This document shows positions 2,741 through 33,411 of a stretch of 64,000 nt of DNA, piece after piece; position 1 is the stretch's first letter, and the number at the start of each line of letters is the position of its first letter. Both the position numbers and the translations under genes were made by a program. The stretch comes from an uncultured delta proteobacterium (lineage in GTDB: Bacteria; Desulfobacterota; Binatia; JACPRU01). The notes below the pieces were generated by a model. The model did no database searches and had not been told where the DNA came from. It saw only the letters and a program-made list of their open reading frames with translations. The stretch covers positions 128,001 through 192,000 of the forward strand of contig CAVUWD010000002.1 of NCBI GenBank assembly GCA_963745025.1. Reading direction: 5' to 3'.

Positions 2741-3973
2741 ATGTCGACGGAGATCCGCATGCCACGGCTCGGCCACTCGATGACCGAGGGCACGGTGGTC
2801 GCGTGGTTGGCAAAGCCCGGCGATCGCGTGCATGCGGGCCAGATCGTGCTGACGATCGAGACCGACAAGGCCGAATACGAGGTCGAGGCGCCCGTCGACG
2901 GCCTGCTCGCGGAGCCGCTCGTCGCCGAGACGCAAGCCGCTGCGGTCGGTGCGGTGCTCGGTTGGGTGCTCGCGCCGGGCGAGGCAAGACCGAGCGTGGC
3001 GGCCGAGGGCGGGGACGAGCGCGCGGCCCGACCGCGCGAAGCTCCGGCGCCGCCGGGGAGCGCCGCGCGCGGCAAGGTTCGCGCGTCGCCGAAGGCGCGC
3101 CGCCTCGCGGAGAGGCTCGGCATCGAGCTCGCGGCGGTCGCCGCGAGCGGACCCGACGGGCTCGTCACGGAGGCCGATGTCGAGCGCGCGGCTCACGAGC
3201 CGCACGACTCGGGCACGCCGGCCGCCGGCGAGTGGAAGGGGCGGGCCGTCCGCGAGCGGCGCCGGCTCGCGCCGATCCGCCGCACGACCGCGCGCCGCAT
3301 GGCCGAGGCGTGGGCGAGCGTGCCGCACATCGTGCAGATGATCGACGTGGACATGGAGGAGGCGCGCCGTCTGCGCGGTCGCTGGAAGGCCGAGGGCGGC
3401 GAGGCCGCGGCGATCACCTACAACGATCTCATCGTCAAGGCATCCGCGCTCGCCCTGGCCGAGCATCCCGATCTCAACGCGGCCGTCGACGGCGACGAGC
3501 TCGTCGTCTTCGCCGAGGTCAACGCCGGAATCGCCGTCGACACCCCGCGCGGCCTCGTCGTGCCGGTGGTGCGGGGCGCCGATCGGCTGTCTCTCCTCGC
3601 GATCTCGCGCGAGTCCCGCCGCCTCGCGGCAAAGGCGCGCGGCGACGGGCTCGACCCCGAGGACTTCGGCGCCGGCACCTTCACGGTCTCGAACCTCGGC
3701 GCGTTCGGAATCCGCGCCGGCACGCCGGTCGTGAACCCGCCCGAGGCCATGCTCGTGTTCGTCGGCGCGGTGGAGGATCGTCCGGTCGTGCGGGACGGCA
3801 CGATCATGGCGCGCCCGACTGTGACGCTCTCGATCGCCTACGACCACCGTGTCGCCGATGGCGCCGCCGCCGCGCGCGTCACGGCGAGGATTCGCGCGCT
3901 GCTCGAGAGCTCCGCGTCCTGGGCGGAGGCTCCGGAAGCGAGCGAAGCCGCGGCGCCGGCGCCCGGGAGATGA
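2741..3973 (+). CDS. Dihydrolipoamide acyltransferase E2
   Basis: Lipoyl domain ETDKA, E3-binding ASPKARRLA, catalytic DHRVADG. Confidence 0.92.
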   Translation: MSTEIRMPRLGHSMTEGTVVAWLAKPGDRVHAGQIVLTIETDKAEYEVEAPVDGLLAEPLVAETQAAAVGAVLGWVLAPGEARPSVAAEGGDERAARPREAPAPPGSAARGKVRASPKARRLAERLGIELAAVAASGPDGLVTEADVERAAHEPHDSGTPAAGEWKGRAVRERRRLAPIRRTTARRMAEAWASVPHIVQMIDVDMEEARRLRGRWKAEGGEAAAITYNDLIVKASALALAEHPDLNAAVDGDELVVFAEVNAGIAVDTPRGLVVPVVRGADRLSLLAISRESRRLAAKARGDGLDPEDFGAGTFTVSNLGAFGIRAGTPVVNPPEAMLVFVGAVEDRPVVRDGTIMARPTVTLSIAYDHRVADGAAAARVTARIRALLESSASWAEAPEASEAAAPAPGR

Positions 3974-20035: not shown

Positions 20036-21148
20036 TCAAGGAACCAGCGCCGCACGGGCGATCGTCGTCGTGTCGTGCGCCTTCCACTCGCTGTCGGCGA
20101 ACGCTCTGTCGATCTCCGCGAGCGGGTACTTGTGGGACACCAGCTTCTCGAAGGGCCAGCGCCCGCGGTTGCGGACGAGGAAATCGAGCGCTCTCGGAAT
20201 GACCCACGGATCGTACTGGATGACCCCGATGATGCGCTTCGCGCCCCAGACGAGCTGCGCGGGCTCGAACTCGACCTTGGCCCCCCGGCTGATCGTGCCG
20301 ATCTCGAGGTAGGCGCCGCCGCTGCGCAGCATCTCGATCCCCTCGAGGATGACCTGAGGAAACCCGACGAAGTCGCACGCGACGTCGGCGCCGACCCCTC
20401 CGGTCAGCTTGCGCACCAGATTCACCCGCTCCTTCTTCTCCGGCATCTGCCGCAGATCGATCGTGTGGTCGGCGCCGAACTCGCGCGCGAGCGCCAGCCG
20501 TCCCGGAATCTGGTCGACGACGATCACGGTCTGCGCGCCCATGTCTTTGGCGACCGCCGCGGCTTGGATGCCGAGGCCGCCCGCGCCTTGGATGACGACA
20601 CTGCCGCCAAAGCGCAGCCCCGCCTGGTGCAGGCCGAAGATCACCTGGCAGAGCGCGCAGTTCACGGGCGCGACCAATTCATCGGAGAGCGAGTCGGGAA
20701 CCAGGAAGATCGCGCCGCCGGGACGCAGGTAGTAGTACTCGGCGAAGGCGCCGTGGAAGTGCGGGAAGTCGCGCGGCCCCCGCGGCCGCTCGATCTTGGC
20801 CGGGCAGTTGGCGGGCTCGTTGTTGAGGCAAACGTAGCAGCGCCCGCAGGGATAGAAGTAGGGGTAGGTGACCCGATCGCCTTCCTTGAGCGGCCGCCCG
20901 AGCGAGTCGGTCTTGATGCGCGAGCCGAGCTTGGCGACCCGGCCGGTCATCTCGTGCCCGAAGATCCACCCGTCCTCGGGCAGGCGGAGCGGAGCATCTC
21001 CTCGCCAGAAATGCAGGTCCGACCCGCAGATGTTGGCGAGCGAAACGCGAATGAGGACCGCTTCGGGCTCGACCTCCGGCAACGGCACGTCGCGGAACTC
21101 GAACGGCTTGCCCGGTCCCAGGAAGACGGCGGCTTTGCCGGTGTTCAG
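20036..21148 (-). CDS. Zn-dependent alcohol dehydrogenase (MDR); probable CTG start
   Basis: ICGSDLH, GHEM, CGRCYVC..C, QGAGGLG; conserved N-terminus KAAVFLGPGKPF extends to a CTG at 21148 preceded by AGGAG. Confidence 0.88.
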   Translation of the reverse strand: MNTGKAAVFLGPGKPFEFRDVPLPEVEPEAVLIRVSLANICGSDLHFWRGDAPLRLPEDGWIFGHEMTGRVAKLGSRIKTDSLGRPLKEGDRVTYPYFYPCGRCYVCLNNEPANCPAKIERPRGPRDFPHFHGAFAEYYYLRPGGAIFLVPDSLSDELVAPVNCALCQVIFGLHQAGLRFGGSVVIQGAGGLGIQAAAVAKDMGAQTVIVVDQIPGRLALAREFGADHTIDLRQMPEKKERVNLVRKLTGGVGADVACDFVGFPQVILEGIEMLRSGGAYLEIGTISRGAKVEFEPAQLVWGAKRIIGVIQYDPWVIPRALDFLVRNRGRWPFEKLVSHKYPLAEIDRAFADSEWKAHDTTTIARAALVP

Positions 21149-21632
21149 GTGGGTTCTCCTCGTTTGCGTCGTGAGGGACGGTCGCCGGGAGGAAACCCTT
21201 GCTCCGCGCCGGCGAGATCTCGTGCCTTCTCCCCTCCGCTAATTCGAGTTCGCGCCGCCTGTCAAGATGCGTCGCGGCAGATGCGTCGCGGCATTGCCTC
21301 GGCGTCGGATCCTCCTAAAGCGCGTATCAAGGAGGGCGAAGTCAGGGATGCTCGGCCACTTCAGCGATTGTGCAGCCGGGTCCTCGAAAGAACGTCCGGT
21401 CCCTTCCCGGGGCCGCATCTGCGTTCGAGATTTGACTCGTCGACCGACCGCATGTGATCGTTATCGACCGCCGGATGGACGGGGACAGAATTCCGCAAAT
21501 GCTCGGCCGAGCTTCGAGCGAAGATCGCGCGGCGCGGCGGAGATCTTTTCTCGTCTTCGCTATCGGTTGAACCAGCGTAGCCGGCAATCGCTGTACGGGA
21601 ACTACCTGAAGTCCGGTCCTCCACGAGTTGGG

Positions 21633-22184
21633 ATGATGCTGCGAATCGTCAAGTCGGAAATCCCCGAGGTGCTGCTGATCGAGCCGGAGGTGTTCGGCGA
21701 CGATCGCGGGTTTTTCTACGAAAGCTACAACGAGCGCGCCTTCGGCGCAGCCATCGGCCCCGGTGTCCACTTCGTCCAGGACAACCATTCACGCTCGGCG
21801 CGCAACGTGTTGCGCGGCCTGCATTACCAGGTCCGGCAGCCCCAGGGGAAGCTCGTGCGGGTGACGGCCGGCGAGATCTACGACGTGGCGGTGGACATCC
21901 GCCGCCGCTCCCCGATGTTCGGCAAGTGGACTGCCGCCGTGCTCTCGGCGAGTAACCGCAAGATGTGCTGGGTGCCTCCCGGATTCGCGCACGGCTTTCT
22001 CGTCGTGAGTGACCACGCCGAGTTGCAGTACAAGACGACCGATTACTGGGCGCCGCAGCACGAGCGCTGCATCCTCTGGAACGATCCTGACCTCGCCATA
22101 CGCTGGCCGATTCAAGACGAGCCAATCCTGTCCCAGAAAGACCGGGTAGGCCTGCCCCTGAGGCAGGCCGAGGTATTCCCGTGA
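21633..22184 (+). CDS. rfbC: dTDP-4-dehydrorhamnose 3,5-epimerase
   Basis: GDDRGFF, FVQDNHSRS, LRGLHYQ, PGFAHGF. Confidence 0.95.
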   Translation: MMLRIVKSEIPEVLLIEPEVFGDDRGFFYESYNERAFGAAIGPGVHFVQDNHSRSARNVLRGLHYQVRQPQGKLVRVTAGEIYDVAVDIRRRSPMFGKWTAAVLSASNRKMCWVPPGFAHGFLVVSDHAELQYKTTDYWAPQHERCILWNDPDLAIRWPIQDEPILSQKDRVGLPLRQAEVFP

Positions 22185-23077
22185 CCAGGATCCTGGTCAC
22201 GGGCCGCACCGGACAGATCGGCTGGGAGCTGCAAGGCGCGCTGGCGCCGCTCGGCACGGTGATCGCACTCGATCGCAGCGCGATGGACTTGGCGAGTCCG
22301 GACTCGATCCGACGTGCGATCCGGGACGCGAGACCGGAAATCATCGTCAACGCAGCAGCCTACACCGAGGTGGACAAGGCCGAATCCGAGCCCGATCTCG
22401 CATTGAAGGTCAACGGTGTTGCACCCGGCATCATGGCGGAAGAGGCCAAGCGCCTCGGGGCGATCCTCGTCCATTACTCGACGGACTATGTGTTCGACGG
22501 CGAGCTCGACCGGCCGTACGTCGAGGACGATCCACCCAACCCGGTGAACGCTTACGGGAAGACCAAGCTGGCCGGAGAGCTCGCGGTCGCTGCGGTCGGG
22601 GGCCGTCACCTGATCCTGCGTTCGAGCTGGGTCTACAGCGCGCGCGGCAGCAACTTTGTGCTCACGGTACTGCGTCTCGCACGCGAGAAGCCGGAACTCG
22701 CCATGGTGGACGACCAGACCGGCTCTCCGACCTGGTCCCGCGCGCTGGCGGAGGCCACGGCAGAGCTGTTACGCCGGAAGGACCGCGTACTCGGTCGCAG
22801 CGGGGTGTATCACCTCGCGGCCAGCGGACACGCATCCCGTTATGAGTTTGCGAAGGACGTCATCCGCATCATGCGGGACGTTTGCGGAGAGGTAGGCGGC
22901 TGGGCAAAGGTAAGACCGATCACCAGCGGCGAGTATCCATTGCCGGCGCGGCGCCCGCGCAATCCGGTCATGAGCCAGGACAAGGTCAAGCGGATTCTCG
23001 GCGTCGAAATGACGCACTGGAGGGATGTATTGCGGTCGTTCCTCGTGGATCTCGCCCCGATGAAGGTGGCGCGCTGA
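22181..23077 (+). CDS. rfbD: dTDP-4-dehydrorhamnose reductase
   Basis: TGRTGQIG, NAAAYTEVDKAE, STDYVFDG, YGKTKLAGE, DQTGSPT. Confidence 0.95.
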   Translation: MTRILVTGRTGQIGWELQGALAPLGTVIALDRSAMDLASPDSIRRAIRDARPEIIVNAAAYTEVDKAESEPDLALKVNGVAPGIMAEEAKRLGAILVHYSTDYVFDGELDRPYVEDDPPNPVNAYGKTKLAGELAVAAVGGRHLILRSSWVYSARGSNFVLTVLRLAREKPELAMVDDQTGSPTWSRALAEATAELLRRKDRVLGRSGVYHLAASGHASRYEFAKDVIRIMRDVCGEVGGWAKVRPITSGEYPLPARRPRNPVMSQDKVKRILGVEMTHWRDVLRSFLVDLAPMKVAR

Positions 23078-23229
23078 CGGTGTTCGCCGGGGACTTCCCG
23101 TAGTTTGAGGGCGGCGGCCATGGCGCGATGGCCGGGGAAGAAAACCTCCCGGAATCCGCAGACGTCCGACGTCGGCTGCGGTTGTGCCCGTGCCGCGCGA
23201 AGCCTAGCTTAATGGTGCCGGAGTTCGCC

Positions 23230-23862
23230 ATGTTCGACCCTCTCGCCGAGGAGCGCAAGGAAATCTCCGCCCGAACGCTCGAATACTACGAGCGCGTCGC
23301 GGTACAGTTCCGCGAAGGGACCTGGGACCATGACGTCCGGCAGAACATTGACACCCTGCTCCGGCACATCGAGGCGCCGGCCCCATTCACCATCCTCGAC
23401 CTCGGCTGTGGCCCGGGGCGAGATCTGGTCGCTTTTTCGGCTCTCGGCCACGTCACCATCGGCCTCGAAGGATCGGCGGCACTCGCGCGCATGGCCCGCG
23501 CGGCATCGGGCTGCGAAGTTCTAGAGCAGGACTTCCTCGCGCTCGATCTCCCCGCGCGGCGGTTCGACGGCATCTTCGCGAACGCGTCGCTGTTCCACGT
23601 TCCGAGCCGCGAGCTGCCCGGGGTGCTCGAGCAGCTCCGCACGGCTCTCCGTTCGCACGGCGTGCTCTTCTCCTCCAATCCGCGCGGCAGCGGCGAAGAG
23701 GGTTGGTCGCGAGAGCGCTACGGCTGCTACCACGACCTCGCGGGATGGCGAGGGTTCCTCACGGCCGCGGGCTTCGAGGAGCTCGAACACTACTACCGGC
23801 CCCCCGGTCTTCCGCGGGAGCGGCAACCCTGGCTCGCGACCGTGTGGCGGCGGTTGAGCTGA
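23230..23862 (+). CDS. Class I SAM-dependent methyltransferase
   Basis: LDLGCGPGRD, FDGIFANASLFH; start uncertain. Confidence 0.85.
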   Translation: MFDPLAEERKEISARTLEYYERVAVQFREGTWDHDVRQNIDTLLRHIEAPAPFTILDLGCGPGRDLVAFSALGHVTIGLEGSAALARMARAASGCEVLEQDFLALDLPARRFDGIFANASLFHVPSRELPGVLEQLRTALRSHGVLFSSNPRGSGEEGWSRERYGCYHDLAGWRGFLTAAGFEELEHYYRPPGLPRERQPWLATVWRRLS

Positions 23863-23888
23863 CGGGACGTTCCGCAGAGGTGCATGCG

Positions 23889-24263
23889 ATGCTCGTCAAT
23901 GAGGAAGACGACCGGTTCTACGTCGCGAAATCGACCCTGCCTGGCGCGGGGAGCGGCCTGTTCACGAAGGTGCCGCTCCGCAAGGGCGACCGCCTCGAGG
24001 TCGTCGGCGTGATCGTGCGCCGCGACTCGGTTTCGGACCGCTGCACGCACTTCTGCGATCACCACAAGTTCCGGATCGGGGAGAGCCAGCTGCTGATCCC
24101 GCTCGGCTTCGGCGCAATGGTGAACCACTCGCCTACTCCCAACCTGCAGAAGGTCTTCGAGGGCGACCGTCTCTACCTCGAGGCGCTGCGCGACCTTCCG
24201 GCGGACGAAGAGGTCTTCTTCACCTACACGCCGTATGCGCAAGAAGCGTTCGGTCTGCTCTGA
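23889..24263 (+). CDS. SET domain protein
   Basis: STLPGAGSGLF, VNHS..PN, EEVFFTY. Confidence 0.8.
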   Translation: MLVNEEDDRFYVAKSTLPGAGSGLFTKVPLRKGDRLEVVGVIVRRDSVSDRCTHFCDHHKFRIGESQLLIPLGFGAMVNHSPTPNLQKVFEGDRLYLEALRDLPADEEVFFTYTPYAQEAFGLL

Positions 24264-24953
24264 TCAAGCGGGCATGACCGCGTAGCGCGTACGATCGGAC
24301 ACTCCTGCCTCCACGAACGCCTCGTGGCGCTCGTGGCACTTGAGACAGGCGCCGCAGTGCAGCGGACCTAGGGGGCCGCCTTCGTCGAGGGTCGTGCCCG
24401 CCTTCTGGCCGATGCAGGTCAGGGTGAGATGCAGCGGCAGCTCGCGGTGAGCGCGGATGAGATCTGATTTCTCCATGCCGCGGTACGGCGCGACGACCTC
24501 GATCGCGTGGCGGAGGGCTCCGCTCAGCAGCCGGCCGTAGTCGGCGAAGAACTCGGGCGTCGCGTCCGGGTAGGGATTCTGCATCAGCGATCCGAGCGCG
24601 ATCCGGTGAACGTCGTGAAGGGCGCACCAGACACCGGCCACGCCGAGCAAAAGGATGTTCCGGCCGGGAAGGTAGTCGGCGTCGATGCGGGCGTCGTAGT
24701 CCGGAACGTCCTCGCCCGTGAGGCTCCAGTGGCGTCCGTAGAGACGGTCGACGGGCACGGCGAGCGTCGCCAGCGGCGCGAAGCGCCGGCCACCGAGCGC
24801 CGCAAGGTAGGTTCGCAGCGCCTTTTGCTCGGCCGCCTCCCATGCGAGGCCGAACTCGACGTAGAGCGGGAAGACGTCGGAGTTTCGAGCGAGGTCGGCG
24901 ACGAGCACCGCGCTATCGAGGCCGCCGCTGGTGAGGACGGCTACGCGATCCAC
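24264..24953 (-). CDS. queC: 7-cyano-7-deazaguanine synthase QueC-like PP-loop ATPase
   Basis: SGGLDS PP-loop, YLPGRN, YPD, Zn site TC...HCGACLKC; GTG start at 24953. Confidence 0.78.
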   Translation of the reverse strand: MDRVAVLTSGGLDSAVLVADLARNSDVFPLYVEFGLAWEAAEQKALRTYLAALGGRRFAPLATLAVPVDRLYGRHWSLTGEDVPDYDARIDADYLPGRNILLLGVAGVWCALHDVHRIALGSLMQNPYPDATPEFFADYGRLLSGALRHAIEVVAPYRGMEKSDLIRAHRELPLHLTLTCIGQKAGTTLDEGGPLGPLHCGACLKCHERHEAFVEAGVSDRTRYAVMPA

Positions 24954-25015
24954 GGCTCGCTCCCGCAAACGGCGTCGCTCTTCGCCGTCGGATCGCCGAC
25001 CATCGGATGACAGCC

Positions 25016-25929: not shown

Positions 25930-27697
25930 TCACGACACCGCGGGCTCGCACGCGCTCACCGACCGGATGAGCGTCGCGGGGGGTACGCCGTGTCGCCGCA
26001 ACAGCCGGCGCATCTGCAGATTCATCTCGTAGAAGGTGGGCGGCTCATAGGTATGTCCCGCGCGCAAGAGTCGTTCTTCGCGGTGCAGCTTCCACAAGGC
26101 AAAGCGCCCGGCCAGCGGCGCCACCACGCGGGCCCGAAGGCCCACTTCCCGCTTGATGTCGGTCAAGAGCCGGCTCAGCTTGGTCACCAGCGCAGGGTTG
26201 CGCTCAGCAAACCAGCGGCGGGCCGCCCACAACGCCGCGGGATACATCACGGTCAGGTCCCGCGCCTCCCACGCGAAGCGTTCCCGAATGCGCCGGTCCG
26301 TGTGGTCTTTGTAGCGCCGCCATCCCTGCAGCAAGGTCCTGGCGATGCGCAGCACGCTGGGCCCGTTGACTTCGAAGTCCCGCTGAAACGCGCTCAAAAT
26401 CAGCTCCGCTTCCTTCCCGGGAGAGATCGACGGATGGAGATGCCGAAAGTGGAGCTGCCCGTGGATGTCCGCCTCGTGGTAGCTGTCGGGCTCCCGCAGC
26501 GTCCCGTTGGCCAAGTGCTCGGCATAGAGCGGCGTGCCGGGAACCGGCGTGTAGAGCATGAACTGGTGGAAGTCCGTCTCGTGGCTGACGGCATGCTCGA
26601 TTGCCTCGACGATGTTCTCGGGTGTGTGCTCCTCCAAGCCGATGATGCTCGAGCCCAGAACCCGGATGCCGTGCGACTGGAGCGTGCGGACCAGCGAGAC
26701 GGTATCCACCCCGGAGAGCTTGGCATACCGGCTGTTCTTCCCCTCCAGGCCCATCCACACCCATGAGATGCCCAACCGGACCAGCTCCTCGATCGCATAC
26801 GATTGCAAGACCCGGGCGGAGCTGAACACGTAGAGCGACCACGACTTGCCGTGGTGCTCAATCAGCTCCAACAGGCGCAGCGCGCGTTGGCGGTGCAACA
26901 GGAAGTTTTCGTCCATCACGAAGAAGGAGCGCACCTGCATCCCCTGCTCCAGCCCGCACATCACGCGGAAGAGCTCATCGCCGCTTTGGTAGAAATTCAC
27001 GGACTGGCCCTTGCCGCCGAACATCGCGGAGGTCGAGCAGAAGTTGCATCCCACCGGGCAGCCGACCGACGGGATCAGCGTGGCGGCACACGACCGCCCG
27101 GCACTGCTGCTCTCAAAACCCATCACGCGCGTCCGGACCGCGGAGGAGATCTGCGGATGCCGGACCGGCTGCGCGGGGTCCTCCCCCAGGAACTGCCGGA
27201 ACCAGCGCACCCCCTCGCCGCGCACAATGTAGTCCGCATCCACGCGCTGGTCCAAATCCTGGCAGTTGGCGATGTGCCCGCCCACCACGATCGTGGCCTG
27301 CGGCTGATGCCGCGCGGATGAGCTGGCACATCTTCTTGACCTTCTCGACATTCGGCAGGATGGAGCTGATGCCGATGATGTCGTACTCCGCGGAGCACAG
27401 CTCGTCGGTAAAGCGCTCCAGCGTCGGAAAATCCAGCAGCGTGCAGGGCGCGTCGATATTGGCGTGGATGAGCATGATGCCCCACGACCGGTGGAACATG
27501 CGCAGTGAAAACGGGCCCTGGCCGCGGGTCACCTGGTTTTGGTACAGCTCCATCGGGTTGAGCGCCCGGCTGCCGTAGTCGTCGTCTTGCGCATACGGGC
27601 CGAAGACGCTGCTCAGCAGGATGCGGGCGCGCGATCCCAACGGATGCTGGGGCACCGCTTGGCCGGAGCGGGGCGCCGCGTTGGTTACGATTGCCAT
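25930..27697 (-). pseudogene. Cobalamin-dependent radical SAM protein with one frameshift at about 27314
   Basis: B12-binding N-terminus (YDIIGISS..VKKMCQLIR) continues in another frame as HQPQATIVVGGH..GEG; GCPVGCNFC; removing one base in ATCCGCGCGGCAT restores the frame. Confidence 0.8.
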
Positions 27698-29123: not shown

Positions 29124-29640
29124 ATGAACGGTCCGATCGCAGGCAAGGTCGTCGTCATCACGGGAGCGAGCAGCGGAATCGGCGAGACGACCGCGAAGCA
29201 TCTGGCGGCGTCCGGGGCGCTGGTCTCCCTCGGAGCGCGCCGCAAGCATCGGCTCGACGCGTTGGTCGATCGACATCAACGTCAAGGGCGTCCTCTACGG
29301 AATCGCTGCCGTGCTGCCGATCATGAGAGAACAAGAGAGCGGTCACATCATCAACGTCTCTTCCGTCGCGGGCCACACGGTGAGACCCGGAAACGCCGTC
29401 TACGCGGCGACAAAGCATGCGGTTCGTGTGATCTCCGAGGGTCTCCGGATGGAAGTCAAGCCGTACGGAATCCGGACCACGATCATCTCCCCGGGTGCCG
29501 TCGCGACGGAGCTCGCCGACAGCGTGACCGAGCCCGACCTCCAGGAGCGGACGCGCGCTTTCTATGCGCTGGCGGTCCCAGCGGACGTGATCGCCCGCGC
29601 GATCGCCTACGCGATTTCCGAGCCACCCGATTCTCGAACC
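29124..29640 (+). pseudogene. SDR oxidoreductase with internal deletion and frameshift
   Basis: [14 protein letters not shown] jumps at about 29270 to [22 protein letters not shown] in another frame; the NNAG region is missing. Confidence 0.85.
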
Positions 29641-29714
29641 AGACCTGCCCAGAGAAGCAGGAAGGTAAGCGATCGGCACCGAGGATCCAGTCGGTGCAGG
29701 GAGGGACGACTGGG

Positions 29715-30590
29715 GTGACGCAAAGACCGACGCGACTCGACGCGATCGTTCAGGCGGAGCGGCGCTTCGTGTGGCTGGACTGCATGGCCTACGCGCGACG
29801 GCTGTTCGCTCCGAGCGAAGACGTCTGGGGAGAGGTGAGTCGGTTCATCGACGTCGTCCGGCAAGCGCAGCGGCTGGTGGCATCCGAAGTGATCGAGATC
29901 AGTTTGGACGCATTTCATCGGGCTGCGCTCAAGCCGACGTCTGGAGCCGATTCCCGTACCGATCCTCGCGCGGTGTCGTCCCTTCGCCGGCTGCTGCGAG
30001 ACGGAGCGCCCACGAAGCGAGCCTCGGAGAGCATTCGCGGGTTGCACGCGCTCTACCCCGACGTTCCCATCGTCCTCGTGCTGAAGGGCGGTGCCCGCTG
30101 GCTTTCGCTGGCTTCCAACGACCTCGGGTTCGAGAAGTCGTGGGATCGTGAGGACGTGGACGCCAGCAGCGTGTACTTGGCGGATCTCGTGCGATCGTTC
30201 TCGAACGTCGGGGTGGCAGGCATCGTCGTCGACGTGCGAGGCCAAGACGCGGCCTCGGCGCCGGAGCAGGTCGAGCTGCATCGCCCACTGTTCAACGTCG
30301 CGCAGCATTACCAGTGGGTCAAGGGCGTGATGACCGATCCGCCGGCGCTGTTCGATGGATCCGCGCTCGCCGGCCTCGTCGATCTCGTCCTGTGCCCCGA
30401 AATCGATCTTGCCGCGGTCGCCCGACCGGTCGACGGCGTTCCTGTCGGCGGTGGTCTGAATGAGCGGTTCTGGCTGGCAGAAGAGTGTCCCGAGCTACCA
30501 GAGCGGGGCCTATGCTACGGCGAGATCCCCGAGCATGCCGAGCCGGAACAAGTGCTCTCCAGACTGGCCCGACTGCGCGCTCGCGTCTGA
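29715..30590 (+). CDS. Hypothetical protein
   Basis: Protein-like 291-aa frame from GTG 29715 after GGAGG; possibly a URO-D/TIM-barrel-like fold (weak). Confidence 0.6.
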
Positions 30591-30678
30591 CGCCACCGAA
30601 GCACGTTAGCTCGGCACCATCGCTTCCTGGGGCCTGTCGGGTAGGGACCGGTGCCTGACAGGGCTTGCTCGCTGTACC

Positions 30679-31458
30679 TCAAGCTTTCCGCGCGAGGACG
30701 TTTACTCCATGGACGCCGAACTTCCGTGCGACATTCTCCTTTGAGGTCCCACAGAAGCAATCAAACCGGTCGGTAATCTTCGCCTCCGAAAACCCGACCG
30801 CAGTAAGTAGCGAGAGGAGCTCTGCCTCCGGCAGAGCACCGGCAATTCACGCGGTCCACAAGTCGATGTCGCGGCGCGCCTCATCTGAAACCGCGCTCTC
30901 AAGCGCAATGTCCGCCAGGAACAGCTGCCCTGCGGGCTTGAGCACACGATACATCTCGCGCGCTGCGGTTTCCTTCTCTGGGACCAGGTTGAGGACGCCG
31001 TTCGAGATCACCACGTCAACACTCTCGCTCTCGATGGGTAGCGCAACGGCATCGCCACTCCGCACCTCAACGTTATCGAGACCGGCCGCGCAGGCCCCGC
31101 TGCGCGCTTGGGCGGCCATCGCCTCGGTCATCTCGATCCCAATGGCCCGCCCGCTCGGACCGATGGCGCGGGCCGCAAGCAGCAAGTCCAGGCCGGCACC
31201 ACACCCGACATCAACGACCGTCATCCCGGTCTGCAGCGGCGCGACACGAAGCGGATTGCCGATGCCACTAAACGGGGCGGTCACCTCTGCAGGGAGCGTC
31301 GCGAGCGCCGCGGCGCTGTAGCCCAGTACGGCGACGGCGTACTCCGGGCCGCGGTGAAAATGGAACGTTCCCTGAGGTTCCGTCACCACGCGCGTGTACA
31401 TGGTGTGGATCGCCTCCCGCAGGCGTTGCCTATCCACATCACACGGTAGCGCGATCAT
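30679..31458 (-). CDS. ArsM-like SAM methyltransferase, predicted selenoprotein (UGA at 30847-30849 = Sec)
   Basis: VDVGCGAGLD, DVVISNGV; LWTA-TGA-IAGAL aligns with the ArsM LW.GCIAGAL motif; frame stays open 55 codons to TGA at 30679; hairpin right after the UGA. Confidence 0.85.
30816..30840 (-). other. Putative bacterial SECIS hairpin
   Basis: GCUCUGCC-GGA-GGCAGAGC perfect 8-bp stem; G-led loop starts 17 nt after the UGA. Confidence 0.75.
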
Positions 31459-31591
31459 TTGAGGCCCTGTTCCGGCGGACTTTAATGTAGCACTCCAGCG
31501 ACTTCACGATACCATGGCCCGTTACGGGTGGATGTGGCGTTGAACCTGATCCAACCATTCGGTAGGGAATGCGCCTTGAAGGAGGGCACGA

Positions 31592-32395
31592 ATGAAGTCC
31601 ATTACGGATGTCGGCCTGCAAGACGTTACCGCCGTCTACAGTGGAGCAGAAGGAGACCTGTGGGAACTCCTGATGGGTCACCAGATTCACATCGGTGGCT
31701 TCAAGTCTTCGATGGACCTGGCGGAGCGAGCCGGTATTGGCGCAGGGCTCCGCGGCGTCGACCTCTGCTGCTGCAATGGTGCCGGCATGCGATTTCTCGT
31801 GCGCTTCCGTGAGGTCGCCGGCATGACTGGTGTTGACGCGACCGAAACCGTGGTGAACCGCGGGCGTCAACGCTGTCAGGAGGAAGGCCTCGCCGACCGG
31901 ATTCGTTTCGTCCTTGGAGACGTCTGCAACAGCGGGCTGCCGGCGGGCAGCGCCGATTTCGTCTGGGGCGAGGATGCCTGGTGCTATGTGACCGACAAGC
32001 CAAAGCTGATCGCCGAGGCAGCCCGTATCGTCAAAGCGGGCGGAACGATCGCGTTCACTGACTGGGTAGAAGGGCCCGCCGGGTTGTCGGATGCCGAAGC
32101 GGAGCACTTCCTGCGCTTCATGAAATTTGCCAACATTCAGGATATTGACGGCTATGCCGGTTTACTGACCCAGAACGGGTGCAAGGTGCTAGCCGCTGAG
32201 GATACGCAACGGTTCGCAGAGCACGTCGATCTCTACATGAAGATGGTGGACATGCAGCTAACCTACGATGCGCTGCGGATCATTGGCTTCAACATGACGC
32301 TGATGCAAGCGGTGGCTGCGGAGTTCGCCTTCATGAGGGAACTGGCTCACGCTGGCAAGATTGCGCAGGGGCGCTTCATCTCTCGTCGCAACTAG
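31592..32395 (+). CDS. SAM methyltransferase (sarcosine/phosphoethanolamine N-MTase-like)
   Basis: IHIGG, VDLCCCNGAG, DFVWGEDAWCY, IAFTDW. Confidence 0.8.
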   Translation: MKSITDVGLQDVTAVYSGAEGDLWELLMGHQIHIGGFKSSMDLAERAGIGAGLRGVDLCCCNGAGMRFLVRFREVAGMTGVDATETVVNRGRQRCQEEGLADRIRFVLGDVCNSGLPAGSADFVWGEDAWCYVTDKPKLIAEAARIVKAGGTIAFTDWVEGPAGLSDAEAEHFLRFMKFANIQDIDGYAGLLTQNGCKVLAAEDTQRFAEHVDLYMKMVDMQLTYDALRIIGFNMTLMQAVAAEFAFMRELAHAGKIAQGRFISRRN

Positions 32396-32460
32396 GACCA
32401 TCCGGGCCCGCGGCGCCTGCACGGAATGCTTTGCCGGAGACGCGGCGAAATCGCCGTTCC

Positions 32461-33411
32461 ATGAACCGGAATGAGGGAATCGGCAGTGCGCCACCGCCGT
32501 TGCCTCTGTCTGCGAACACGCGGAGGGACACGCTAGCCCCGAGTATCGCGATTCTCGTGTCGACGCTGTTCTGGGGCACACTGTGGATCCCGCTCCGGCA
32601 ACTCGACGCCGCGGGACTCGGCGGGCCCTGGCCGACGACCGCCGGTTTCACCATCCCGTTGCTGGTCCTTTTCCCGGTTGCCCTAATCCGCCGGCGCTCG
32701 ATCATCGCCGGCGGGTGCCCACTCGCGCAGGCCGGCATCCTCATGGCCACGTGCCTCGCGCTGTACGCCGAAGCACTGCTGCGGGGATACGTCGCTCGTG
32801 TGGTGCTGCTCTTCTATCTCACGCCGGTGTGGAGCACCGTGCTCGCGCGTGCGGTTCTGGGCGACCGCATCACGGGTATCCGCATCGTCACGATCGTGTT
32901 GGGGCTTCTGGGGATGTTCATCGTCTTTGGCATCGGGAACGGTCTTCCGATACCACGCACGGTCGCCGAATGGATGGGTCTGCTCTCGGGCTTCCTCTGG
33001 GGAGCGTCAATGGTCAGCATACGGCGCCTTGCCCCGCATGTTTCCGATTTCGACAAGGTCTTCGTCCTGCTCCTGTTTGTGGGCGTGCTTTTCGTGCTGC
33101 TCACCCTCGTGCCCGGAGGGCGCCCGTGGGTGGTTCCCACGGCAGAGATCTTCACGCGCTCCGCGACCTGGCTGCTGCTCTTCGGCCTGATCTGGATGCC
33201 CGTCGTGCTCTGGCTCACGATGTTCGGCAGCAGCCGGCTCGATCCGGGTCGTGTCGCGGTGCTCCTCATGCTGGAGGTGGTGATCGCGCTCGTCTCCGCC
33301 GCAGTGCTCACCAACGAACCATTTGGTCCACGTGAATTCATCGGTGCCGTCTTCATCGTGGCTGCGTGCGGGGCAGAGTTTTTCGTTCGACGTTCGGTCT
33401 CATCGACCTGA
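32461..33411 (+). CDS. DMT/EamA family transporter
   Basis: About 10 TM segments, LFWG, FYLTPVW, LLMLEVV. Confidence 0.85.
   Translation: MNRNEGIGSAPPPLPLSANTRRDTLAPSIAILVSTLFWGTLWIPLRQLDAAGLGGPWPTTAGFTIPLLVLFPVALIRRRSIIAGGCPLAQAGILMATCLALYAEALLRGYVARVVLLFYLTPVWSTVLARAVLGDRITGIRIVTIVLGLLGMFIVFGIGNGLPIPRTVAEWMGLLSGFLWGASMVSIRRLAPHVSDFDKVFVLLLFVGVLFVLLTLVPGGRPWVVPTAEIFTRSATWLLLFGLIWMPVVLWLTMFGSSRLDPGRVAVLLMLEVVIALVSAAVLTNEPFGPREFIGAVFIVAACGAEFFVRRSVSST

Follow-up and report, generated by a model that had tools for sequence, protein, structure and literature searches.

The window, a stretch of 64,000 nucleotides of genomic DNA from an uncultured delta proteobacterium, carries on its minus strand a gene for a methyltransferase (positions 30682..31458) whose reading frame is interrupted by a UGA codon. 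This codon, number 204, is almost certainly decoded as selenocysteine (Sec), judging from the sequence comparisons described below. The product is a protein of 259 residues assigned to the class I SAM methyltransferases, the ArsM superfamily and, within it, a group here called the SNG clade; the assignment uses the read-through translation, Pfam, NCBIfam, AlphaFold2 and Foldseek. Its homology and fold make it highly probable that this is a methyltransferase with Sec at its substrate site. Taken as a whole, the locus is probably a genuine selenoprotein gene for a SAM methyltransferase of the ArsM fold, in which a lone selenolate anchors a substrate other than inorganic As(III).

In the list of open reading frames the gene is called as 30847..31458 on the minus strand, a protein of 203 residues with the C-terminal sequence DIDLWTA, directly after which the minus-strand triplet 30849-30847 reads TGA. 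The starting point of the original prediction, that the ORF track ends at this TGA, is thus borne out by both the ORF list and the minus-strand sequence. When the TGA is read as U, the frame continues as IAGALPEAELLSLLTAVGFSEAKITDRFDCFCGTSKENVARKFGVHGVNVLARKA, that is for 55 further residues, until a second TGA at 30681-30679, giving the 259-residue Sec enzyme that had been postulated. The in-frame UGA (30847..30849, minus strand) is recognized as the codon of the predicted U204 from the sequence itself, from the alignment to PDB chains 4kw7 and 4fr0 and from the alternation of TGA and Cys in homologues; in the read-through protein its surroundings are DLWTA-U-IAGALPEAELLSLLTAVGFSEAK. The second TGA (30679..30681, minus strand), which follows ...ARKA, is taken as the true stop, because the orthologues, with the C-termini ARKPQ, ARKPR and ARKAG, terminate at the same point. 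The frame is open past the second TGA, and a second C-terminal Sec of the UXPK-star type was therefore considered; it was rejected because there is no likeness to U-x-P-K-stop and because the orthologues stop at the same ARK motif. A scan of positions 30450-31750 gave no promoter-like site and a single terminator-like site, situated within the methyltransferase gene on the opposite strand.

A second SAM methyltransferase of 267 residues, called MT2 here (31592..32395, plus strand; Pfam Methyltransf_11/25/31), is transcribed divergently from the Sec methyltransferase. It is followed after 36 nt by a gene for an EamA-family transporter (32431..33411, plus strand), identified from the ORF list and a Pfam EamA match of 82.7 bits. 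On the other side of the locus, a short-chain dehydrogenase gene at 29124-29718 (plus strand) is split over two frames near 29300-29360, its N-terminal adh_short piece and its C-terminal piece lying in different frames. Farther away, a radical SAM gene at 25930-27697 (minus strand) is present as two overlapping ORFs, 27113..27697 and 25930..27351, and appears to be split by a frameshift near 27300.

A hairpin with the properties of a bacterial SECIS element lies downstream of the UGA (30819..30837, minus strand). Along the minus strand, the spacer AUUGCCGGU (30846-30838) is followed by the 5' arm GCUCUGCC (30837-30830), the loop GGA (30829-30827) and the 3' arm GGCAGAGC (30826-30819). The 8-bp stem begins 9 nt after the UGA and, with the 8-nt 5' arm added to the spacer, the loop begins 17 nt after it, exactly as predicted. 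According to PMC13188914 and the legend of its Fig. 2, a bSECIS has a loop of 3-9 nt, a stem of 4-16 bp, a G in the first two loop positions, a distance of 16-37 nt from the UGA and an MFE of at most -7.5. All these rules are satisfied here by the GGA loop, the 8 bp, the 17 nt and an energy of -13.4 kcal/mol for the hairpin alone. Perfect 8-bp hairpins with loops of 3-9 nt occur 31 times on each of the two strands of the window, and only nine of its 1347 TGA triplets, counted on both strands, are followed at 16-37 nt by such a hairpin with a G-first loop. The fold of the 60-nt segment has a z-score of -1.69, which is weak (10 of 200 shuffles fold equally well), so that the significance of the hairpin derives from the comparison across loci and not from folding energy. 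No SECIS family emerged from an Rfam scan of 30500-31100 with E up to 10, in which the only two matches (E 7 and 9.9) are attributable to chance.

The short segment 30823-30869, which takes in the DLW codons, the UGA and the hairpin, reaches a summed depth of up to 74 in contigs of public metagenomes, far more than other parts of the gene; it seems to be shared almost letter for letter by many related organisms.

Homologues were collected from two sources. A six-frame search of 61 related genomes with E up to 1e-30 gave 26 places, among which the four best (100, 62, 55 and 51% identity) contain one TGA each and the remaining ones none. A scan of public genome contigs gave at least 589 confirmed matches; the best 80 were taken, and together with the 26 places they form a comparison set of 106 loci. 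Fifty-four of these are of the canonical ArsM type, having the motifs GCGNP, SNC and GC[IV]xGA, and all 54 have Cys at the U204 column. The other 52 are of the SNG type (xGxGNP without Cys, plus SNG), and at the same column they have TGA in 39 loci and Cys in 13, a set that, like the 106, includes the best 80 of at least 589 matches. The alternation of Cys and TGA that had been proposed as a check is therefore found. The 39 TGA forms consist of 38 scored in the alignment and of L060, in which the DNA reads IDLWTG-TGA, then the same hairpin, downstream of a frameshift; here TGA and hairpin were identified by eye. The 55 residues past the TGA are conserved at the protein level across phyla.

The frameshift in L060 (about 3540-3610) is situated just upstream of the Sec codon, and L090 (3001-3771) has an extra in-frame stop other than TGA eight codons ahead of its TGA. 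Both thus look damaged, perhaps through assembly errors, or the two may be pseudogenes.

In a quick maximum-likelihood tree of 105 rows, from which L060 was omitted, the SNG type forms one side of a branch with an SH-aLRT of 97. Within this side there are a Cys-only group of nine and a group of 42, which comprises 38 Sec forms and four Cys forms nested among them. The MAG labels of the TGA forms, among the matches listed, are Acidobacteriota, Gemmatimonadota, Actinomycetota, Chloroflexota, Pseudomonadota, Spirochaetota and Binatota, and a TGA form is also found in the cultured Pseudonocardia asaccharolytica DSM 44247 (L068). In one related genome, G016, contig C3 carries two SNG-type loci in the same orientation, separated by about 1.3 kb (L044, L047), one with TGA and the other a divergent Cys form; a third copy, with TGA, is located on another contig (L024).

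Database proteins present a different picture of the same family. The 27 best matches (P0003-P0029) are stubs of 184-231 residues that cover 67-78% of the query, and several of them are labelled arsenite methyltransferase; full-length Cys forms occur in the protein database from about 60% identity down. Two otherwise full-length homologues have Trp (P0040) and Arg (P0052) at the Sec/Cys column. These residues could result from translation of the TGA under another code by the source, or from a real CGA codon.

The hairpin is present in the same register in all 38 aligned TGA forms of the comparison set, which includes the best 80 of at least 589 contig matches. Eight standard pairs out of eight are formed in 16 of them, seven in 15 and six in seven. 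The 13 Cys forms of the SNG type have lost the hairpin: the in-register pairs number two in eight forms, three in two, and four, five and six in one form each. In the ungapped alignment of the TGA forms (A2), 90.5% of the 304 cells are standard pairs, and sliding the 3' partner by 1-3 columns reduces the paired fraction to 32-50% (maximum 49.7%). Four of the eight stem pairs are changed on both sides, for example from C-G to G-C in 14 sequences and from U-A to C-G in 11, and the observed covariation score was reached by none of 500 shuffles. Several of the compensating changes alter the protein, from Pro-Glu-Ala to Gln-Val-Ala or from Ala to Gly, which is a sign of selection acting on the RNA. 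The G rule is broken by the CCCGU loop of five L068-type hairpins. The proposal of a SECIS-like hairpin 3' of the UGA is upheld by this covariation across loci as well as by the constraints that PMC13188914 sets out.

The genome contains the complete machinery for Sec insertion, the presence of which had been named as a check. The genes selA (571 bits), selB (397 bits) and selD (385 bits), each above its curated cut-off, adjoin one another head to tail on contig C20 (G000, 20417-25012, minus strand), and a tRNA-Sec with the anticodon TCA, also above its curated cut-off at 76.5 bits, is situated on C15. The selD gene of this genome itself has one in-frame TGA (...KAAG-U-AAKLGP), which is followed after 9 nt by an 8-bp stem with a GGC loop; the hairpins of selD and of the methyltransferase have the same spacing, stem length and loop type. 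Among the related genomes, selA is present in G016 and G017, both of which have TGA forms; in G026, a 93% complete genome with a Cys form, it was not detected.

Four public runs, each from a different study, have contigs over positions 30847-30849, with no other letter there; the closest deviation, a synonymous change at 30850, occurs in one of the runs. A 559-nt contig with 10 differences spans the codon, as does a 151-nt contig from an RNA library, a kind of library in which DNA may also be present. The TGC or TGT that would have contradicted the prediction is thus seen in none of the contigs of these runs.

Two readings of the TGA compete with decoding as Sec. If it were a true stop, the gene would encode a truncated methyltransferase of 203 residues and the downstream stretch would be a decaying remnant. 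The gene callers do end there, the 27 best database proteins have about the corresponding length, and two relatives, with the frameshift in L060 and the extra stop in L090, look damaged. However, the 55 residues that follow show protein-level conservation across phyla, TGA is retained at 39 loci of the comparison set with its best 80 of at least 589 matches, the hairpin covaries, full-length Cys forms exist, and truncation would delete the equivalent of ArsM Cys224 together with the last strands of the fold; a true stop is therefore very improbable. Slightly less credible still is that an assembly or sequencing error has turned a TGC or TGT into the TGA, or that the codon is read as Trp or Cys without Sec machinery. 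The assembly is not flawless, since two genes of the window are split by frameshifts, and two database homologues have Trp or Arg at this column. Against this stand the contigs of the four runs, the recurrence of TGA in 39 independent loci (in the set that includes the best 80 of at least 589), the complete Sec machinery with its matching selD hairpin, and the use of TGA as an ordinary stop in the window.

The 259-residue protein has only class I methyltransferase domains in Pfam (Methyltransf_31/25/11) and no second domain. Its best NCBIfam matches are all of the ArsM type and all below cut-off: NF041537 with 215 bits (cut-off 510), NF008823 with 207.7 (263), NF047649 with 204 (460) and NF041536 with 199 (575). 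The AlphaFold2 model, based on a 55-row alignment, has a pLDDT of 94.6 and a pTM of 0.92, and Foldseek places it closest to CrArsM, CmArsM and human AS3MT, with TMq values of 0.65-0.76 at 25-31% identity. With regard to membership of ArsM, the SAM-binding Rossmann domain and an ArsM-like fold are present and the NF008823 cut-off is missed.

A sequence alignment made by phmmer with the CmArsM chains places U204 at C224, G154 at C174 and I66 at C72. The equivalents of ArsM Cys44, Cys72 and Cys174 are absent, and only position 224 is retained, as Sec. Residues 150-156 read VISNGVL, confirming that the cysteine of the ISNC motif is lacking, as had been noted (ISNGV). The N-terminal segment, which has CC in canonical ArsM, is [FY]HFH[RT]G in the SNG clade and FHFHRG here. 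Among the SNG rows, drawn from a set with the best 80 of at least 589 matches, H33 and F34 are found in 51 of 51, H35 in 40 of 51 (37 of the 38 Sec forms) and Gly at G154 in 51 of 51. As judged from the alignment, U204 is the only conserved redox residue of the clade protein. Two other cysteines were considered: Cys6, in an N-terminal 'CP' motif, was rejected as a partner of the Sec because it is kept in closer relatives only and is absent in the FHFHTGR group, and Cys235 (FDC) was rejected as a family feature because it is not conserved across the SNG clade. A canonical ArsM with the full set of cysteines (L045, on C18) is encoded elsewhere in the same genome.

These positions bear on the substrate. 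ArsM is defined in PMC5552862 by at least three of the four cysteines 44, 72, 174 and 224; the present protein keeps one of the four positions and fails this criterion. In the account of PMC6138428, all four cysteines are needed for the conversion of As(III) to MAs(III), Cys174 and Cys224 make up the metalloid site, and only Cys224 binds DMAs(III), and does so weakly. The doubt that the original prediction raised over arsenite as the substrate is justified, because the protein lacks, besides the ISNC cysteine, counterparts of CmArsM Cys72 and Cys44. On balance, the missing cysteines suggest that the enzyme does not act on As(III) in the manner of ArsM but has another substrate.

A mechanism may be proposed as follows. 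SelB with Sec-tRNA(Sec), recruited by the 8-bp hairpin with its GGA loop 9 nt downstream, would decode UGA-204, and the product would be a SAM-dependent methyltransferase of 259 residues with the ArsM fold. The selenol of U204 would be positioned at the ArsM Cys224 site, beside the methyl group of SAM. The replacement of Cys174 by Gly, of Cys72 by Ile and of the N-terminal Cys pair by HFH leads us to infer that a single selenolate anchors the substrate, which would be a soft species requiring one such ligand and would then be methylated. It would not be inorganic As(III) bound by three thiols. Sulfur or selenium species are candidate substrates, and so is a methylated arsenical, for instance DMAs(III).

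The genomic context gives two hints that differ in direction. Orthologues of MT2 with 66-67% identity are found in arsR-arsM-MT2 operons of the loci L027, L029 and L034, where the stop of a canonical arsM overlaps the MT2 orthologue by 4 nt, behind arsR (L027, 1366-2996; also L029 and L034); these loci are from three genomes of one genus and are close to a single observation. The best NCBIfam match of MT2, with 48.9 bits, is below cut-off. This arrangement is a hint of a link to arsenic, and, from the context, MT2 is a possible functional partner of the Sec methyltransferase and the EamA transporter a possible exporter.

The other hint comes from SNG-type loci elsewhere. A gene for a fusion of an ArsR/SmtB HTH with a rhodanese domain adjoins the methyltransferase in 12 of the 52 SNG-type loci (L068, at 1699-2421 on the minus strand, L050, L051, L059, L063, L069, L074, L075, L077, L080, L081 and L117), and an MFS transporter gene stands beside 14 of the 52, often together with the fusion gene. 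Neither the fusion nor the MFS gene was found by tblastn beside any of the 54 canonical ArsM loci, 11 of which have a plain ArsR HTH as neighbour. All these counts come from tblastn searches in which the MFS protein and each half of the L068 regulator served as queries, in a set that includes the best 80 of at least 589 matches; they are lower bounds, as many loci end near the methyltransferase gene. The fusion regulator scores 75 bits with NF033788 and has rhodanese-type matches at residues 133-237. Rhodanese domains carry sulfur or selenium, and the loci with the fusion gene are in this respect a hint of chalcogen chemistry. A literature search on ArsR-rhodanese fusion regulators yielded nothing specific.

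The closest rival to a substrate other than inorganic As(III) is that the protein is an ordinary ArsM in which Sec replaces Cys224 and which methylates inorganic As(III) as ArsM does. The best NCBIfam matches, NF041537 and NF008823, are ArsM-named, the nearest solved structures are those of ArsM and AS3MT, the database homologues are labelled 'arsenite methyltransferase', and MT2 orthologues are found in arsR-arsM operons elsewhere. Nevertheless, this reading is unlikely: one conserved cysteine is left where the criterion of PMC5552862 asks for at least three of four, the As(III) to MAs(III) step described in PMC6138428 needs four, with Cys174 and Cys224 as the binding site, all family scores are under cut-off, the SNG type is a separate clade, and the genome has its own canonical ArsM. 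A more specific proposal, which we put forward tentatively, is that the SNG/HFH clade is a separate family and not an arsenite methyltransferase, its lone selenolate, perhaps assisted by His33 and His35, holding a substrate that takes one chalcogenolate ligand. Two kinds of chemistry fit the context. Sulfane-sulfur or selenium species might be converted by methylation into methyl sulfides or selenides that are volatile or can be exported, as suggested by the ArsR-rhodanese genes (12 of 52) and MFS genes (14 of 52) at the SNG-type loci, again with the best 80 of at least 589 matches included. Alternatively, the enzyme might carry out the last step of arsenic methylation, from DMAs(III) to trimethylarsine, as suggested by the binding of DMAs(III) to Cys224 alone that PMC6138428 describes, by the canonical ArsM in the genome and by the adjoining MT2 of the type found in ArsM operons.

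The locus has consequences for annotation. Because gene callers stop at the UGA, the closest database proteins are stubs, several of them named arsenite methyltransferase, and, as a result of these names, counts of arsM in surveys of arsenic cycling may take in a widespread clade without three of the four ArsM cysteines. The locus also provides a clean natural series of SECIS hairpins, 38 in number and varied by compensatory changes, as well as a predicted active site with one selenol.

Sec-containing methyltransferases resembling ArsM had been described before, as the original prediction stated: they have been in print since 2007, and NCBIfam has models for fused forms. Table 1 of PMC13188914 enters a Sec arsenite S-adenosylmethyltransferase (PRK11873/NF008823, motif UxxG) as 'experimentally verified', with a reference to Fomenko et al. 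2007 Science, and a Sec-containing arsenite methyltransferase is also named in PMC2398784 and PMC9312934. Going by the table entry, the present protein has in common with it the ArsM superfamily and the motif U-x-x-G (here U-I-A-G), and also the SECIS hairpin just downstream and the Cys in non-Sec homologues. It differs from the NF008823 arsenite methyltransferase in its score (207.7 bits against a cut-off of 263) and in having no equivalents of Cys44, Cys72 and Cys174. The families NF041537 and NF041536 are selenoproteins in which ArsM is fused to an AhpD or a DUF2284 domain with further Sec residues; the present protein matches these profiles at positions 7-229 only and has no second domain. 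CmArsM and AS3MT (PDB 4fr0, 4fs8, 6cx6, 5evj, 8xt7) have the same fold and the same SAM-binding motifs, and their C224 position is retained here, as Sec. However, their chains are of about 320-390 residues against 259 here, and the present protein lacks Cys44, Cys72 and Cys174 and has HFH in its N-terminal segment.

Another catalogued form is NF047649, listed in PMC13188914 as a methyltransferase/UXPK-star double selenoprotein and attributed there to Haft and Tolstoy 2025. Four of 401 genomes of the phylum have a member above cut-off, and 20 of the 401 have a match with E up to 1e-80, all of them with at least one TGA. The members L128-L131 (495-533 bits) also have VISNGVFNL, with no equivalent of Cys174, and Sec at the same column (ENW[YF]QUIGGA), so that the catalogued families already include one form of Sec methyltransferase that lacks an equivalent of Cys174. 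They differ from the present protein, which reaches 204 bits where the cut-off is 460, in a longer C-terminus with a second Sec in U-x-P-K-stop in place of ARKA-stop, in F[RQ]YPTG in place of FHFHRG, and in a Cys at the position of S64. In the literature searched, which did not extend to Haft and Tolstoy 2025 and its supplements, no description was found of a Sec-bearing ArsM-like clade without the other three cysteines. The kind of selenoprotein is therefore known, and what appears to be new is modest: a clade that, by its sequences, fails the ArsM cysteine criterion, a covariation set of 38 SECIS sequences, and the association of part of the SNG clade with an ArsR-rhodanese gene and an MFS gene.
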